Position numbers and translations under genes: made by a program. From an uncultured Dehalococcoidales bacterium (GTDB lineage Bacteria; Chloroflexota; Dehalococcoidia; GIF9; UBA5629), in the NCBI GenBank assembly GCA_964400675.1, contig CAYNVO010000003.1, forward strand, positions 42,576 to 106,575: 64,000 nt of DNA. Direction: 5' to 3'. This document shows, piece by piece, positions 7,329 to 13,302 of the stretch. Each line of letters starts with the position of its first letter. The first letter of the stretch is position 1. The notes under the pieces are model-generated. The model worked only from the letters and a program-made list of their open reading frames with translations, was not told where the DNA came from and did not search any database.

Positions 7329-8399
7329 TCATGTAGTGTGATTATTCAAGTAACACTGAAAGCCATCCAAATGGATGTCAATTTCCTGCTTCAGCATTGG
7401 AAATAGTCGTTTACATTTCATTATGATGGCTCTTCGCTTGATGTCTTCATTTTTTTTACGGCCGTAACAGTCAACAACCTGCAATTTGGTGTGCATCCCC
7501 AGTGAACGGGAAAATAAATTCACCACCTTGCGATCATATTCTGGAAACGAATAACCGATTACTGTGACTATGTTCGCTGTTTTCAATTCCTTCTCTGCTG
7601 AAGACCAAAGAGGCTGAATCATCTTGGGGTATGGTTCATACGGAATAATTATGAAAGGTTGGACAGATTCGCCACAATTTTCAGAACACCTCTTATTATC
7701 GAAAAAATTCTTGAACATGAAAGGATAATACAGATGTAGATGATTACAGGAAGGACAAATCCCCCAATCGATAGACCCGTTAAGTTTGATAAGTTTTATG
7801 GGGTTGTTTTGTGCATAGAATTTTTTACGCTTATCGTCAATCCAATCAAATTTAAGCAAATAATCAAAGTAGACATTTGCATCAAAGTCTTCGTGTAAAA
7901 GAACGTCGAAATTGAAAGAAAGTATTGCAACTTGGCCTGGGTGATTGCTCTTCAAAACTCTGTCTATGAATCTCTTGTATAGAAGGTTTTCATGGCCAAT
8001 GCTGGACTCTGCTAAGTGCTCAAAAATTAACCTTCTAACGAGTTCTACCCCCTTGATATCTCCATTTTGTTGTAACATCATCAGGATTTCATCAACGTAA
8101 CGCCTTTTGTTCCGTAGCCTTTTATTCAGTATGCCACGTGTATCGAAAACCATATCGCCTCTCTCATCCCATTCTTTAAGAAGAAATTCGTATTCTGGAT
8201 AAATTGATGCAGCTAATTTAAGGAATTCACGATAATTGGAGAATCTTTCATTCTCCTCTTGAAGATCTGGACTCCCATTGTCATTATATGGAAGAAGTCG
8301 CCCACAATCCAACGGATAGTTCCAGACTAAGTCCCTTCCTAGTGGGGTATTGGCAGATGCTGCAGATGCTCCGGCCCCAAAAACATATACATGTTTCAT
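7329..8399 (-). CDS. SIR2-like (sirtuin / SIR2_2 DHS-like NAD-binding) domain protein.
   Basis: N-terminal VYVFGAGASAASANTPLGRDL resembles the sirtuin GAGIS..G.P.FR loop. SFNFDVLLHE resembles the (T)TNxDxLxE motif. IKLIKLNGSIDW resembles the SIR2_2 'KLHGSxxW' motif but has Asn where the catalytic His is expected. Cx2C...Cx2C Zn-ribbon (CPSC...CSENC). VIGYSF near the C-terminus. Confidence 0.55.
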   Translation of the reverse strand: MKHVYVFGAGASAASANTPLGRDLVWNYPLDCGRLLPYNDNGSPDLQEENERFSNYREFLKLAASIYPEYEFLLKEWDERGDMVFDTRGILNKRLRNKRRYVDEILMMLQQNGDIKGVELVRRLIFEHLAESSIGHENLLYKRFIDRVLKSNHPGQVAILSFNFDVLLHEDFDANVYFDYLLKFDWIDDKRKKFYAQNNPIKLIKLNGSIDWGICPSCNHLHLYYPFMFKNFFDNKRCSENCGESVQPFIIIPYEPYPKMIQPLWSSAEKELKTANIVTVIGYSFPEYDRKVVNLFSRSLGMHTKLQVVDCYGRKKNEDIKRRAIIMKCKRLFPMLKQEIDIHLDGFQCYLNNHTT

Positions 8400-8630
8400 T
8401 TTACTTCATGCCACCTCCCCCTTTTTAATGCTTGCCAATTAACCCAAGCGAGGTTATTTTTTCTTAGCATTTCCACACTTTTAGGTAATACTTCGTTGTT
8501 GAAGACAAGCCTACTATTCACAGCAATGATTTTATACTCCTATTAGCCTTAAGGCAATTTGCGACACAAGCTGCATCTGCACAATCAAGCCAAAAAGTAA
8601 ACTCGGGTTTTACTGGTATTTCGTCCGTTT

Positions 8631-9947
8631 TCAATGATAGCTGGCCAACTTAGAATCCAATGTTCTTTTTATACGTGTCTCTACAAATTCTTTCGTAAGC
8701 ATTTCATCGTAGCGAAAGTAGACCATGGTAACAGCGTTTTCAGAGCAAAGGCTTGCTTTCAATTTGTCACGTTCCTGTGTTTGTTGAAAACCATCCTCGC
8801 CACCAAAAAATGGGATAGGGTCATAATGTTGGCGTCCCTGATATTCAATTGCCAACCGGAGTTCAGGTACAAAGATGTCTAGTCGTTGTCTACCTAACCA
8901 TTCTGGACTTGCTTGATGGACAATTTCATTCTTGGGAAAAATGTCCTTCACCATATTCAGCAGTTCCCTTTCAGATACCCAGCCCTCGCCAATGTGCGGA
9001 ATGCCCAGTAGGTCACGTATTTCATTTTCGGCTTCATGCTCGTCGATATTTTTCTCGATGGCTATTCGTTTAATGTAAGGGCCATAGTGAACCTTCACAT
9101 TACTACCATACATCGGGTGGCAATAGAAAAGTTCAGAGGGAATATCACGGCAAAGATGGCAAATACCGCTTCGGAACTTAGATTTCTGATATGAAGCTAT
9201 AAACTTGTGAGCCCAACCGCTTTCTGCATAAGGATTTTTCTCCTCAACTGCTTTCAAATAGTGCTTCTCCAAGGCTGTTCTGAAACATTCGCAGAAATAA
9301 GACTTGCCACAAACCTTACATATGAACCTGATAATCCGGTCATCTATATATGCCGCCAGGTAATCAGGGTGACATTGACACGACGGAACAAGGTCATCGC
9401 CGATAGAAGTAAGAACTTCAACAGGAAGTCCTATATGTCCCCAATACCCCATGCGAATTATGTAACGGGAAACCGTTTTTAGATGCTTGCTCTTAACCTC
9501 GAGTGGTTTCGGGCAAATCAAATTAACGGGCTTCTCTAAGTGAATTACAGGAGAATCGTTATGCCTAACTATAATCGTGAACTCAAACCATCCCAATTCA
9601 ACCACCGATTGCCTGGGTAAATCCTTTAGGAACCAGGGAAGATGAATTATTGAAGGTTGAGGTGGATACCTGTATCTCGATGGCAGATGTGAATCCGGCG
9701 ACCCTATTAGCATATATTCGCGACTTAGAGACAAGCCTTTGGCAAACCGCGAAGGGCCAGGGTTGAAGCCTATTTTGAAACGAAGTATCTCTCCAGAAGC
9801 GACAAAATTCCTAAGTTGCTTGTCAAATTGCTCAACAACAAGTTGAATAATGAGTTCGGGTAAACTCCGCATTGGTGAACTTAGAATCTTGTCCTTCAAC
9901 CCACATCGAAACAGGTCAAAATCTATGTCCAGCCGGAGAGTAAACAC
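8631..9947 (-). CDS. Cys-rich (zinc-finger-like) protein with a C-terminal DUF559/Vsr-like endonuclease domain. N-terminal ~170 aa are unassigned.
   Basis: C-terminal RLDIFVPELRLAIEYQGRQH...QTQERDKLKASLCSENAVTMVYFRYDE fits the DUF559 pattern 'D..P..L.IE.DG.QH....RD..L...G..V.R'. Central Cys clusters CQCHPD, CKVCGKSYFCEC, CHLC. 231-bp gap to the SIR2-like gene on the same strand. Confidence 0.45.
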   Translation of the reverse strand: MFTLRLDIDFDLFRCGLKDKILSSPMRSLPELIIQLVVEQFDKQLRNFVASGEILRFKIGFNPGPSRFAKGLSLSREYMLIGSPDSHLPSRYRYPPQPSIIHLPWFLKDLPRQSVVELGWFEFTIIVRHNDSPVIHLEKPVNLICPKPLEVKSKHLKTVSRYIIRMGYWGHIGLPVEVLTSIGDDLVPSCQCHPDYLAAYIDDRIIRFICKVCGKSYFCECFRTALEKHYLKAVEEKNPYAESGWAHKFIASYQKSKFRSGICHLCRDIPSELFYCHPMYGSNVKVHYGPYIKRIAIEKNIDEHEAENEIRDLLGIPHIGEGWVSERELLNMVKDIFPKNEIVHQASPEWLGRQRLDIFVPELRLAIEYQGRQHYDPIPFFGGEDGFQQTQERDKLKASLCSENAVTMVYFRYDEMLTKEFVETRIKRTLDSKLASYH

Positions 9948-10109
9948 TTGCTTATTCGCCCAATCTTTTAGAAACTTTAGGCTAATCGGTTGGCACTGTC
10001 AAACGTACTTTTTCTCAGAACCAAAGAGCCTTATTTGCTATCACTACACTTTTTTCAAATACGCAGGTAACGATTCATCGTTTTGTTACCCTTCGCCCGG
10101 GGCAATGTC

Positions 10110-10682: not shown

Positions 10683-11489
10683 TTACTGTGGTTGAGATTC
10701 TTCGCTGCGCTCAGAATGACAGGACGGGAAGATCTCAGAATGACAGGGCAAGAAGTGCTCAGAGTGATGGAGATTTGGATTCTTCGGTCGCTTTGCTCTC
10801 TCAGAATGACAGGAGGGGTTGCCAAGGCTGTACTCCTGTATATCTAATGTCCAGTGGTTGTCCCTGGATATGGGAACAGATTTACCTATTTTTACGGGCT
10901 TCTTGAACGCCGGTCCGTCATATACAAAAGTGTGGAACTCTCCGGCTTCGCCGCAGACGTCGATTTTTGATTTCGCCGCCAGCGCTTTAAGCTCGGAAGC
11001 CAGTTTGCCATCCACCTGCCTGCCCAGCCATTCCTTGCCGAAGAACTCGGTTTTTACGCTGACAACAATGGCTTTGAATCCAGCATCGATGAAGTCGGTC
11101 AGAAGACGGGCGCTGGCCATCCCCCACAGGGGCAGTATTGCCTTCACTCCTGATTCGCCACAGACCCGGTCTATCCAGTCCTTGTGTTCCTGCAGATATA
11201 TATCGCCGGTTATCAAGCCAGTTATGCCTTTGAGCTTAAGCTCGGCTAATGCTTCTTTGAACCCGGCTTCGTAGGTCTCCCAGGTGACTTTTTGCTGAAG
11301 TATGGGCAGAGCCATAGCCTGTGCCTGTAGAGCTATGAGTTTGCGGTCCAAGCCGTGAGACATAGCTCTGGTTGAGTCCGTGTTTATAAAGTTGAGCAGA
11401 TGGCTGACCTTTAAGCCCTGGGAAATCGCTTTCCAGCAGGCAAAGCAACTGTCCTTGCCACCGCTCCATGAAGCTGCATATTCAGTCAT
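10683..11489 (-). CDS. PP-loop ATPase of the MJ0570/Dph6 (ATP_bind_4, diphthine-ammonia-ligase-like) family. C-terminal ~40 aa are read through the repeat array.
   Basis: SWSGGKDS PP-loop at the N-terminus. CGEAGEFHTFVYDGP matches the Dph6-family 'GEgGEyHT.V.DgP' block. The C-terminal tail (CHSE repeats) is translated from the tandem repeat, so the real stop may differ. Confidence 0.6.
   Translation of the reverse strand: MTEYAASWSGGKDSCFACWKAISQGLKVSHLLNFINTDSTRAMSHGLDRKLIALQAQAMALPILQQKVTWETYEAGFKEALAELKLKGITGLITGDIYLQEHKDWIDRVCGESGVKAILPLWGMASARLLTDFIDAGFKAIVVSVKTEFFGKEWLGRQVDGKLASELKALAAKSKIDVCGEAGEFHTFVYDGPAFKKPVKIGKSVPISRDNHWTLDIQEYSLGNPSCHSERAKRPKNPNLHHSEHFLPCHSEIFPSCHSERSEESQPQ
10693..10816. 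repeat. Degenerate tandem array of about four copies of the CCTGTCATTCTGAG-containing unit (minus-strand reading), related to the element at 50.1 kb.
   Basis: Minus strand reads CCTGTCATTCTGAGAGAGCAAAGCGACCGAAGAATCCAAATCTC / CCATCACTCTGAGCACTTCTTG / CCCTGTCATTCTGAGATCTTCCCGT / CCTGTCATTCTGAGCGCAGCGAAGAATCTCA. It overlaps the 3' end of ORF 10683..11489. Confidence 0.6.
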
Positions 11490-12217
11490 TGAAACCTCCC
11501 AATCAAGATGAGTAGTAGAAGCACCAGAACCTCGGCTATCTCGTTGATGGCTCCGTAGTTATCGCCGGTAAGCCCGCCCAGACGGGAACGGAAGTAGCTG
11601 GCTATGCCGAATGCAACAAGCCACAGGGCTGCCATGAGCACCAGACCCCACAGCTTCAGCAGGGCTACGGCGACAATCAAAGCTATGACGGTGGCTATGG
11701 TCAGTCTCTGCCAGGTGGCACCCCGTTTGAAGGCAAGTCCCATGCCGGAGTGTTTGGCATAGGGGAAGGTGAAGATGATGGAGACCATCACCCAGCGGCT
11801 CAAAGTGGGCATGAGCAGCAGGGCTGGCAATATCGGCGCTGCGGAGAGGGAGACATATTTGAGCAGCAGCAGGAGAATGGCGCCGACGATGCCGAAGGCG
11901 CCGACTTTGCTGTCCGACATTATGTCCATCCGTTCCTTTTTGGACTTGCCGGCGATAACGCCGTCGCAGGTGTCGATGAAGCCATCGAGATGGTGGGCGC
12001 CGGTCAGTATGACCAGAGTTATGATGAGCAGTGCGTTTACCACGGAAGAGGGCAGGATAAAACTCAAGCCATAGTAAAGGCCAAGCAGGACGACGCCGAG
12101 AATCAAGCCGACCAGCGGGAAATAGGTCAGTGATTGGCCCGAGGTCTTAGCTGTGGCCTTGTGCCGTAGTGGTGTGGGGAATATGGTCAAGAATTGGATT
12201 GCTTCCCAGAAACCCAA
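11486..12217 (-). CDS. cobS: Adenosylcobinamide-GDP ribazoletransferase (cobalamin synthase), membrane protein.
   Basis: Polytopic membrane protein of 243 aa with CobS-like N-terminus (MGFWEAIQFLTIFP) and HLDGFIDTCDG. Confidence 0.85.
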   Translation of the reverse strand: MGFWEAIQFLTIFPTPLRHKATAKTSGQSLTYFPLVGLILGVVLLGLYYGLSFILPSSVVNALLIITLVILTGAHHLDGFIDTCDGVIAGKSKKERMDIMSDSKVGAFGIVGAILLLLLKYVSLSAAPILPALLLMPTLSRWVMVSIIFTFPYAKHSGMGLAFKRGATWQRLTIATVIALIVAVALLKLWGLVLMAALWLVAFGIASYFRSRLGGLTGDNYGAINEIAEVLVLLLLILIGRFQ

Positions 12218-12228
12218 ATTTATTCTCC

Positions 12229-13302
12229 TTATTGTGGTTCGAGCGGTCTGGCTTCGGAGACGCCGGCCTGAGCAAATGTAGCCATCTGGCTCAGAGTTCT
12301 GACGGAGGCTTCAGCCAGTGAGATGCCCAGGACAGCGCCGGTGCCTTCGCCAAGTCGCATATTAAGATTTAGCAATGGTTTCAGTCCCAGAAACTGTAGC
12401 AGCAGCTCATGTCCTGCCTCTGCCGAGAGATGGGCGGAGATGAGGTAATCTCTGGCTTGTGGTGATAAGCCGATGGCGATGAGGGCGGCAGTCCCGGAGA
12501 TGAAGCCGTCGATGACCACAGGGATTCTGTAGGCAGCGCCGGCAAGCATAACTCCAACCAGCCCGCCGATTTCGAAGCCGCCGACCTTGGACAAGATGTC
12601 TATCGGGTCCTTGGGATTAGGCTTGTTAATCGATAGGGCTCTTTCTATGACCTTGATTTTATGGGCGAGCTGTTTATCGCCGATGCCGGTGCCCCGGCCG
12701 GTGATTTTCCTGGGCTGTTTGCCGCTGATGGCGGCGAAGATGGCGCTGCTGGCGGTGGTATTGCCGATGCCCATATCTCCAGCGCCGATGATATCGACTC
12801 TCTTAGCCATCTCGGCTTCGACCGTCTGGATGCCGGCTTCTATGGCGTCAATGGCTTGCTGGCGTGTCATCGCCGGTCCCTGTGTTATGTTCTGGGTGCC
12901 GAAGTCTATCATTTTACATAATAACCCGGGCAGCGGTTGGAAGCCGCCTTTGACTCCCATATCTACTATTATAACCCGGGCGCCTATCTGTTCGGCCATG
13001 ACATTTATGGCGGCACCGCCTTTGAGGAAGTTGAGGACCATCTGGCGGGTTACTTCCTGAGGATAGAGGCTGACCGTTTCGGCAGCGACGCCGTGGTCAG
13101 CAGCCATGATGATTATGGACTTATGTTCCAATTTAGGTGTGGCTTCGCCCTTGATTCCGGCAATTTGAATCGACAGCTCTTCCAACCTGCCCAGGCTGCC
13201 GTGCGGCTTGGTCAGACTGTTCTGGCGGCTCTGCGCAGCTGCCATCGCTGAGCTATCCAGCGGCTTGATTTCTTTAAGTATTGTGTCTAAGGAAGTGGTC
13301 AT
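12229..13302 (-). CDS. cobT: Nicotinate-nucleotide--dimethylbenzimidazole phosphoribosyltransferase.
   Basis: 357 aa. CobT-like blocks (GAGDMGIGNTT, IDGFISGTAAL, HLSAEAGH). Confidence 0.85.
   Translation of the reverse strand: MTTSLDTILKEIKPLDSSAMAAAQSRQNSLTKPHGSLGRLEELSIQIAGIKGEATPKLEHKSIIIMAADHGVAAETVSLYPQEVTRQMVLNFLKGGAAINVMAEQIGARVIIVDMGVKGGFQPLPGLLCKMIDFGTQNITQGPAMTRQQAIDAIEAGIQTVEAEMAKRVDIIGAGDMGIGNTTASSAIFAAISGKQPRKITGRGTGIGDKQLAHKIKVIERALSINKPNPKDPIDILSKVGGFEIGGLVGVMLAGAAYRIPVVIDGFISGTAALIAIGLSPQARDYLISAHLSAEAGHELLLQFLGLKPLLNLNMRLGEGTGAVLGISLAEASVRTLSQMATFAQAGVSEARPLEPQ

Follow-up and report, generated by a model that had tools for sequence, protein, structure and literature searches.

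A stand-alone SIR2-like gene in a low-GC insert

We analyzed a 64,000-nucleotide stretch of DNA (hereafter, the window) from an uncultured Dehalococcoidales bacterium (assembly GCA_964400675.1, contig CAYNVO010000003.1, positions 42,576 to 106,575), with attention to a SIR2-like gene located on the minus strand at positions 7329..8399. This gene shares a 2.8-kb insert of low guanine-plus-cytosine (GC) content (7329..10109) with an unrelated gene of 438 codons, and the insert is bounded on one side by the 3′ end of the cobT-cobS-cobU operon and on the other by an alcohol dehydrogenase gene in convergent orientation. The SIR2-like product is a stand-alone protein of 356 amino acids, consisting of a Rossmann core, a helical insertion of approximately 120 amino acids, a Zn ribbon, and C-terminal helices. 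Its AlphaFold2 model (predicted local distance difference test score of 91, predicted template modeling score of 0.90) depicts the Zn ribbon as a small beta-sheet. Searching the PDB by sequence, either with the protein alone or with a profile, returned marginal matches only, and the placement of the protein came from a fold search, in which its Rossmann-type fold was superposable on solved SIR2 structures, the nearest of them being defense SIR2s.

The motifs of the predicted nucleotide pocket were located along the protein, all of them encoded on the minus strand. The segment GAGAS (residues 8–12; 8364..8378) corresponds to the glycine motif that binds the pyrophosphate of nicotinamide adenine dinucleotide (NAD+). 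SFNFD (residues 161–165; 7905..7919) is the counterpart of the sirtuin TQNID motif and aligns with TTNYD of PsSIR2; by correspondence with sirtuins, its Asn163 and Asp165 would be catalytic and nicotinamide-binding residues. GYSFP (residues 282–286; 7542..7556) is the counterpart of the G-T-S adenine-ribose loop. The block equivalent to the His-Gly (HG) motif is IKLIKLNGSIDW (residues 201–212; 7764..7799), and it is followed by the Zn ribbon (C215-x2-C218 ... C238-x3-C242; 7674..7757), whose Cys residues are at least 83% conserved. SIR2 enzymes have traditionally been defined in part by the catalytic His of this motif, which was taken to be invariant; the window protein has Asn207-Gly208 (NG) there, Asn207 being encoded by an AAC codon (7779..7781). 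An alignment of 37 family members showed that G8-A-G-A-S12, S161-x-N163-x-D165, K205, G208-S209, D211-W212, and G282-Y-S-F-P286 are invariant, and that Cys 215, 218, 238, and 242 are also conserved.

An initial annotation of the gene, made without database searches, had proposed that Asn replaces the catalytic His in a block homologous to the sirtuin HG motif, and that a sirtuin-type Zn ribbon is retained. Both proposals were borne out. The profile of the 37 members (kliklnGslDWgic-ekc) aligns with KVISLHGNVFEAVCCTC of PfSir2A (3jwp/3u31) and with KLWKLHGSINW of PsSIR2 (8w9l); in this alignment the Asn matches the catalytic His, and both Cys pairs match the Zn cysteines of PfSir2A. The same column holds His in many family members, and K[LP]HGS was found there in all the distant relatives. 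No other His was placed at the catalytic position; His220 and His222 belong to the Zn ribbon and show no conservation. Given that the block is homologous and that no different His takes its place, the Asn-for-His observation stands: according to these alignments, the domain is a genuine SIR2 domain, and Asn207 occupies the position of its catalytic His.

Existing models recognized the window protein poorly. Pfam SIR2 (PF02146) gave 12.2 bits (E = 0.18; cut-off, 24), the NCBIfam CobB models gave 12–18 bits (cut-offs, 243–320), and PADLOC gave weak matches to Aga_SIR2 (pAgo-associated SIR2; E = 3e-7) and SIR2. PF13289 (SIR2_2; gathering threshold, 24.5 bits) did not match it at E ≤ 1. A profile search of 1.84 billion representatives recovered 80 clusters at E ≤ 1e-30, 2,140 at E ≤ 1e-10, and 7,523 at E ≤ 1e-3, and 175 homologues of about 350 amino acids were found in metagenomes. 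A core family (representatives at 50% identity scoring at least 150 bits, n = 57) was distinguished from a next tier of relatives (99–135 bits, n = 69) bearing the motif KLHGSxNW. Five of the seven next-tier relatives scanned (P0316, P0325, P0346, P0360, and P0378) reached the PF13289 threshold, with 24.8–38.9 bits. Since these outer relatives reach the threshold and the window protein has no match to PF13289, the core family is a divergent offshoot. The window protein is best described as belonging to an uncharacterized, stand-alone Zn-ribbon SIR2 family related to SIR2_2, which comprises about 80 clusters at 50% identity within thousands of related stand-alone Zn-ribbon SIR2_2-like proteins. 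The initial remark that a Zn ribbon is unusual for SIR2_2 defense proteins was overstated, because the next-tier relatives, which always carry His, mostly retain the Zn cysteines (91–100% at three positions and 66% at the fourth).

Asn and His alternate at position 207

Of the 120 closest matches in the set clustered at 90% identity, 119 bear the motif, and position 207 is occupied by Asn in 100 of them, by His in 18, and by Arg in one. In the core representatives, Asn (51%) and His (47%) are present in similar proportions, with one Ser. In contrast, the next-tier relatives have 100% His and 0% Asn, and the distant genomic relatives have His throughout. In a neighbor-joining tree, the Asn and His types were interleaved, and Fitch parsimony placed His at the root and counted 14 changes in total, 12 of them inside the core family, a count that depends on this one tree. 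Nine pairs differing in Asn or His share 61–83% identity. At the codon level, Asn is encoded by AAC (11 loci) or AAT (8), and His by CAT (10) or CAC (2), the two residues being one transversion apart.

The rest of the pocket did not follow these exchanges. GAGAS, SxNxD, K-x-x-G-S, and GYS are invariant in Asn-type and His-type members alike, and all conserved residues are equally so in both. The highest mutual information with the Asn/His state in any other column was 0.30, compared with 0.68 for column 207 itself, and no compensating substitution tracking this state was detected in any other column of the family alignment. The repeated switching, together with the unchanged pocket, indicates that site 207 is constrained with two functionally acceptable residues and is not decaying. 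Judging from the sequences, the replacement of His by Asn resembles a functional natural variant, gained and reversed repeatedly in evolution, and not the mark of a dead enzyme.

Two rare states were also observed, both with the other motifs intact. Arg (KLRGS) is present in P0116 (L014:7001-8071), encoded on a Deltaproteobacteria chromosome by a CGT codon that is one step from CAT, and Ser (KLSGS) is present in P0249, a single cluster representative.

Predicted NAD+ cleavage by the Asn and His forms

The only description of Asn at the SIR2 catalytic-His position that we found in the literature is that of Avs5 (Mol Cell 2026, PMC12931631). According to that report, the SIR2 domain of PaAvs5-1 carries NG (residues 153–154) in place of HG and is an active NADase; upon infection, NAD+ falls and ADP-ribose (ADPR) rises, that is, NAD+ is converted to ADPR in the infected cells. 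The report describes the N153H variant as partly functional and N153A, N153Q, N110A, D112A, and E202A as dead, and gives a ratio of NG to HG of about 1:1 among Avs5 homologues (PMC12931631). The window family resembles Avs5 in having Asn-Gly at the catalytic site, in the coexistence of NG and HG, and in keeping GAGxS and (T/S)xNxD. In contrast, the SIR2 domain of Avs5 is fused to a STAND NTPase and a C-terminal sensor, a fusion that is absent from the window protein. We considered whether NG was inherited from Avs5 and rejected this, since His is the root state of the family and the structural similarity to Avs5 is modest; NG thus arose independently in the window family.

In sirtuins, the second step of deacylation, which depends on the 2′-OH, uses the catalytic His as its base, and cleavage of nicotinamide does not require this residue. 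SirTM (class M, 5a3a) has Gln at the His position, which contacts the ribose 3′-OH, and this enzyme ADP-ribosylates and does not deacylate (Rack et al. 2015, PMC4518038). Unlike residue 207 of the window family, the Gln of SirTM is absolutely conserved and not interchangeable, Q137H being dead (PMC4518038). On the basis of the Avs5 and SirTM reports and of sirtuin enzymology, Asn207 would predict an NAD+-cleaving enzyme, neither a deacylase nor a dead scaffold.

The reading that we favor, with a probability of about 0.6, is that the window protein is a catalytically competent stand-alone SIR2 enzyme of a divergent Zn-ribbon branch related to Pfam SIR2_2, in which position 207 requires a hydrogen-bonding side chain and no base, and which carries out NAD+ cleavage only. 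According to this model, a side chain able to form a hydrogen bond with a hydroxyl of the nicotinamide ribose would suffice, so Asn and His could both serve, and a general base at position 207 would not be required. Because no base would be needed there, the chemistry would halt at the cleavage of the NAD+ glycosidic bond, and the His-dependent second step of lysine deacylation would not be reached. By analogy with the enzymes mentioned above, NAD+ cleavage, either as an NADase or as an ADP-ribosyltransferase, is the most likely activity, and not deacylation.

The initial annotation had leaned towards an inactive NAD-binding scaffold, possibly a sensor. If the protein were a non-catalytic sensor or scaffold for NAD+ or ADP-ribose, the pocket motifs would serve ligand binding alone, which could by itself account for their conservation; the loss of the canonical catalytic His in the window protein and the rare Arg and Ser variants at position 207 are also consistent with this idea. 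Nevertheless, members with His and members with Asn show no other difference, and reversion to His has occurred repeatedly; Asn is retained across the synonymous codons AAC and AAT; and the approximately 12 changes took place with the other NAD-pocket motifs invariant and with no compensating column. Furthermore, N163 and D165 are invariant, and in Avs5 their counterparts are needed for NADase-dependent defense and NG is active in PaAvs5-1 (PMC12931631). Finally, there is no partner effector gene to which a sensor could signal. We consequently regard a purely binding role as improbable.

We also weighed an ordinary CobB-type housekeeping enzyme that deacylates protein lysines, with Asn doing no more than slowing it. 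The sirtuin-type Zn ribbon, the weak NCBIfam CobB-like matches, the Joint Genome Institute label “NAD-dependent SIR2 family protein deacetylase” on some members, and the many metabolic neighborhoods agree with it. The canonical sirtuins (Sir2Af1, 1ici; PfSir2A, 3u31; CobB) indeed share with the window protein the Rossmann core, the GAGxS, xxNxD, and G-x-S motifs, and a four-Cys Zn ribbon inserted directly after the catalytic-His strand. They differ from it in having His where it has Asn and a helical module about half as long; its scores remain far below the NCBIfam cut-offs and under the Pfam SIR2 threshold, and its gene is accessory and not housekeeping. In addition, the nearest structures are defense SIR2s, the base for deacylation is absent, and SirTM, which is devoid of this base, has no deacylase activity (PMC4518038). 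The patchy distribution of the family and the location of the gene in a low-GC insert also speak against vertical inheritance. Taken together, these differences make a CobB-type deacylase very improbable.

Several observations weigh against the NAD+-cleaving enzyme that we favor. The number of switches on which it leans comes from a single tree; the window protein has no recognizable sensor or regulatory domain that would restrain a free NADase; and it keeps a Zn ribbon, a typical feature of the sirtuins that deacylate proteins. A non-catalytic NAD-binding protein would likewise conserve the pocket motifs. Regarding a defensive function, the neighborhoods contain mostly housekeeping genes, the PADLOC models gave no strong match, and the family is absent from sequenced phages and nearly absent from plasmids.

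A clade-specific His in the helical insertion

The residue Glu127-His128 pair (8016..8021, minus strand) lies within helix 115–132 of the long helical insertion, according to the AlphaFold2 model. His128 is present in 100% of the core family and in 0% of the outer relatives, which have Thr, Tyr, or Phe instead. Other positions also differ between both groups: W26 is found in 100% of the core family versus 23% of the outer relatives, D103 in 98% versus 24% (55% have Glu), and K98 in 94% versus 41%, while D211 is present in 89% of the core family and Asn occupies this position in 99% of the outer relatives. In other SIR2 proteins, the region of the helical insertion caps the active site. These data raise the alternative that the invariant His128, as a candidate extra active-site residue, and the clade-specific W26 and D211 reach the active site and replace the lost base, leaving position 207 to drift; full deacylation or another base-dependent reaction would then be possible. 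In favor of this idea, the contrast in His128 between the core family and its always-His relatives is complete, and Asn, Ser, or Arg at position 207 is tolerated only in the clade that bears His128.

However, this association corresponds to a single clade-level event, effectively n = 1, and His128 is just as invariant in the members with His207. Because it is equally invariant where His207 is kept, His128 did not arise as compensation at the tips of the tree. Moreover, NG is tolerated in Avs5, for which the passages of the report consulted speak of no relocated base (PMC12931631). We therefore consider it doubtful that the catalytic function was relocated. In its broadest form, which we hold to be unlikely, the clade would have rebuilt the SIR2 active site, with His128 in a helical lid, W26, and D211 supplying the function of the classical His and freeing position 207 to toggle between Asn and His, rarely Ser or Arg; this would represent an accessory system of one gene, not described before and possibly directed against phages, in anaerobic bacteria and archaea. 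If true, His128 would partly vindicate the early suggestion that the catalytic residue sits elsewhere.

Returning to the favored NAD+-cleaving enzyme, NG was known before from the active Avs5 (2026), and the present family adds an independent origin, repeated switching, and the clade-specific His128. The window family is unrelated to Avs5 and much simpler, and it has undergone about a dozen Asn/His swaps with the pocket otherwise fixed. An independent NG and these swaps support a general rule by which SIR2 enzymes that only cleave NAD+ would need no His base. Accordingly, NG-type SIR2 proteins should not be scored as inactive by annotation pipelines. The family also offers a small, partner-less model, with natural Asn and His versions, for dissecting residue 207.

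Distribution and gene neighborhoods of the family

Members of the family come from metagenomes and from genomes of uncultured organisms, with a patchy spread over many bacterial phyla that includes Syntrophales, Anaerolineales, Nitrospirota, Desulfobacteraceae, Dehalococcoidales, Planctomycetia, Omnitrophota, Elusimicrobia, Chitinophagaceae, and Methanocellales archaea. No match was found in sequenced phages, and only two distant matches were found in plasmids. An all-against-all clustering of the neighbors from 31 loci revealed no conserved neighbor of the SIR2 gene. Restriction-modification, PD-T4-6, and PDC-S02 matches were found among the neighbors; in L042, RelB/ParE genes, a type IIG restriction-modification enzyme, and an HNH gene are directly upstream of the SIR2 homologue, and P0062 is adjoined by ParB and DUF2828 genes. 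Defense genes are thus only sometimes nearby, and it is plausible that the gene acts alone in an accessory, perhaps anti-phage, role.

The comparison with other SIR2 systems was extended to their partner genes. The SIR2-HerA (Nezha) structures (8w9l, 8yhx, 8j4u) share only 14–17% sequence identity with the window protein, and PsSIR2 of this system, unlike the window protein, has the catalytic His and no Zn-ribbon cysteines in the aligned block. The window protein also differs from ThsA and SIR2_2 (PF13289) proteins, since it has no SLOG domain and no PF13289 match, and has a Zn ribbon and Asn207. The SirTM operon contains a macrodomain gene, GcvH-L, and LplA2, and no such operon is present at the window gene. 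The 25 most frequent families listed for the 96 neighbors did not include HerA, macrodomain, or LplA, and no neighbor recurs across the 31 loci; TIR was also missing from these 25 families and from the recurrent neighbors, with no scan aimed at ThsB/TIR having been made.

In two Nitrospirota metagenome-assembled genomes (L004:324-3923 and L011:3455-7313), the gene for the SIR2 homologue has short overlaps, of a few bases each, with the upstream gene for an ABC-transporter ATPase and with the downstream BioD-like (AAA_26) gene. GcvH and dihydrolipoamide-dehydrogenase-like genes come next, an arrangement that recalls the association of SirTM with GcvH-L. A SirTM-like link to GcvH or lipoylation was considered and discarded as a family feature, because these two syntenic loci are the only ones in which GcvH and Lpd come after the SIR2 gene. 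Separately, P0270 (L036:1291-3720) is a protein of 809 amino acids in which two HsdS (Methylase_S) domains are fused to a His-type SIR2 domain of the core family. Its gene has DUF3800 and RadC genes on either side, in a metagenomic contig of 4.5 kb. The fusion was found only once and could be an assembly or frameshift artifact.

The locus in the window

The SIR2-like gene of the window is in a horizontally acquired setting without partners. Its GC content is 0.387 and that of the 438-codon gene is 0.43, compared with 0.51–0.56 for cobT-cobS-(diphthamide-synthase-like)-cobU and 0.50 for the Zn-dependent alcohol dehydrogenase gene. A promoter-like site is present in the 231-bp spacer upstream of the SIR2-like gene, and a terminator-like hairpin is located just past it. 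The adjacent gene (8631..9947, minus strand) encodes 438 amino acids comprising an N-terminal domain, a Cys-rich region, and a C-terminal Vsr/DUF559-like PD-(D/E)xK endonuclease fold. We examined it as a functional partner of the SIR2-like protein and rejected it: none of the 31 genomic relatives of the SIR2 gene has it alongside, the 82%-identical SIR2 protein P0007 is in a different context, and the relatives of the 438-amino-acid protein itself stand alone beside gatCA, ParE, or HEPN genes. A two-codon mini open reading frame (ORF) located between a Shine-Dalgarno-like GGAGG and the start codon was conserved only in close relatives and was dropped.

Beyond the insert, the cobalamin lower-ligand operon (10683-13302, minus strand) contains a diphthamide-synthase-like gene (PF01902, ATP-pyrophosphatase family) between cobS and cobU, which is unusual for such an operon; the same cobS-(PF01902)-cobU arrangement was found in L038 and L039. 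The sequence CTCAGAATGACAGG occurs three times (10690-10823; chance expectation, 0.01) in the interval between cobU and the 3′ terminus of ORF 10683..11489, each copy after a segment of the GATTCTTCG type. The last approximately 45 amino acids of this ORF (CHSERAKRPKN...CHSERSEES) extend past its Pfam match (residues 5–221 of 268), and they are probably the read-through of this short intergenic repeat.
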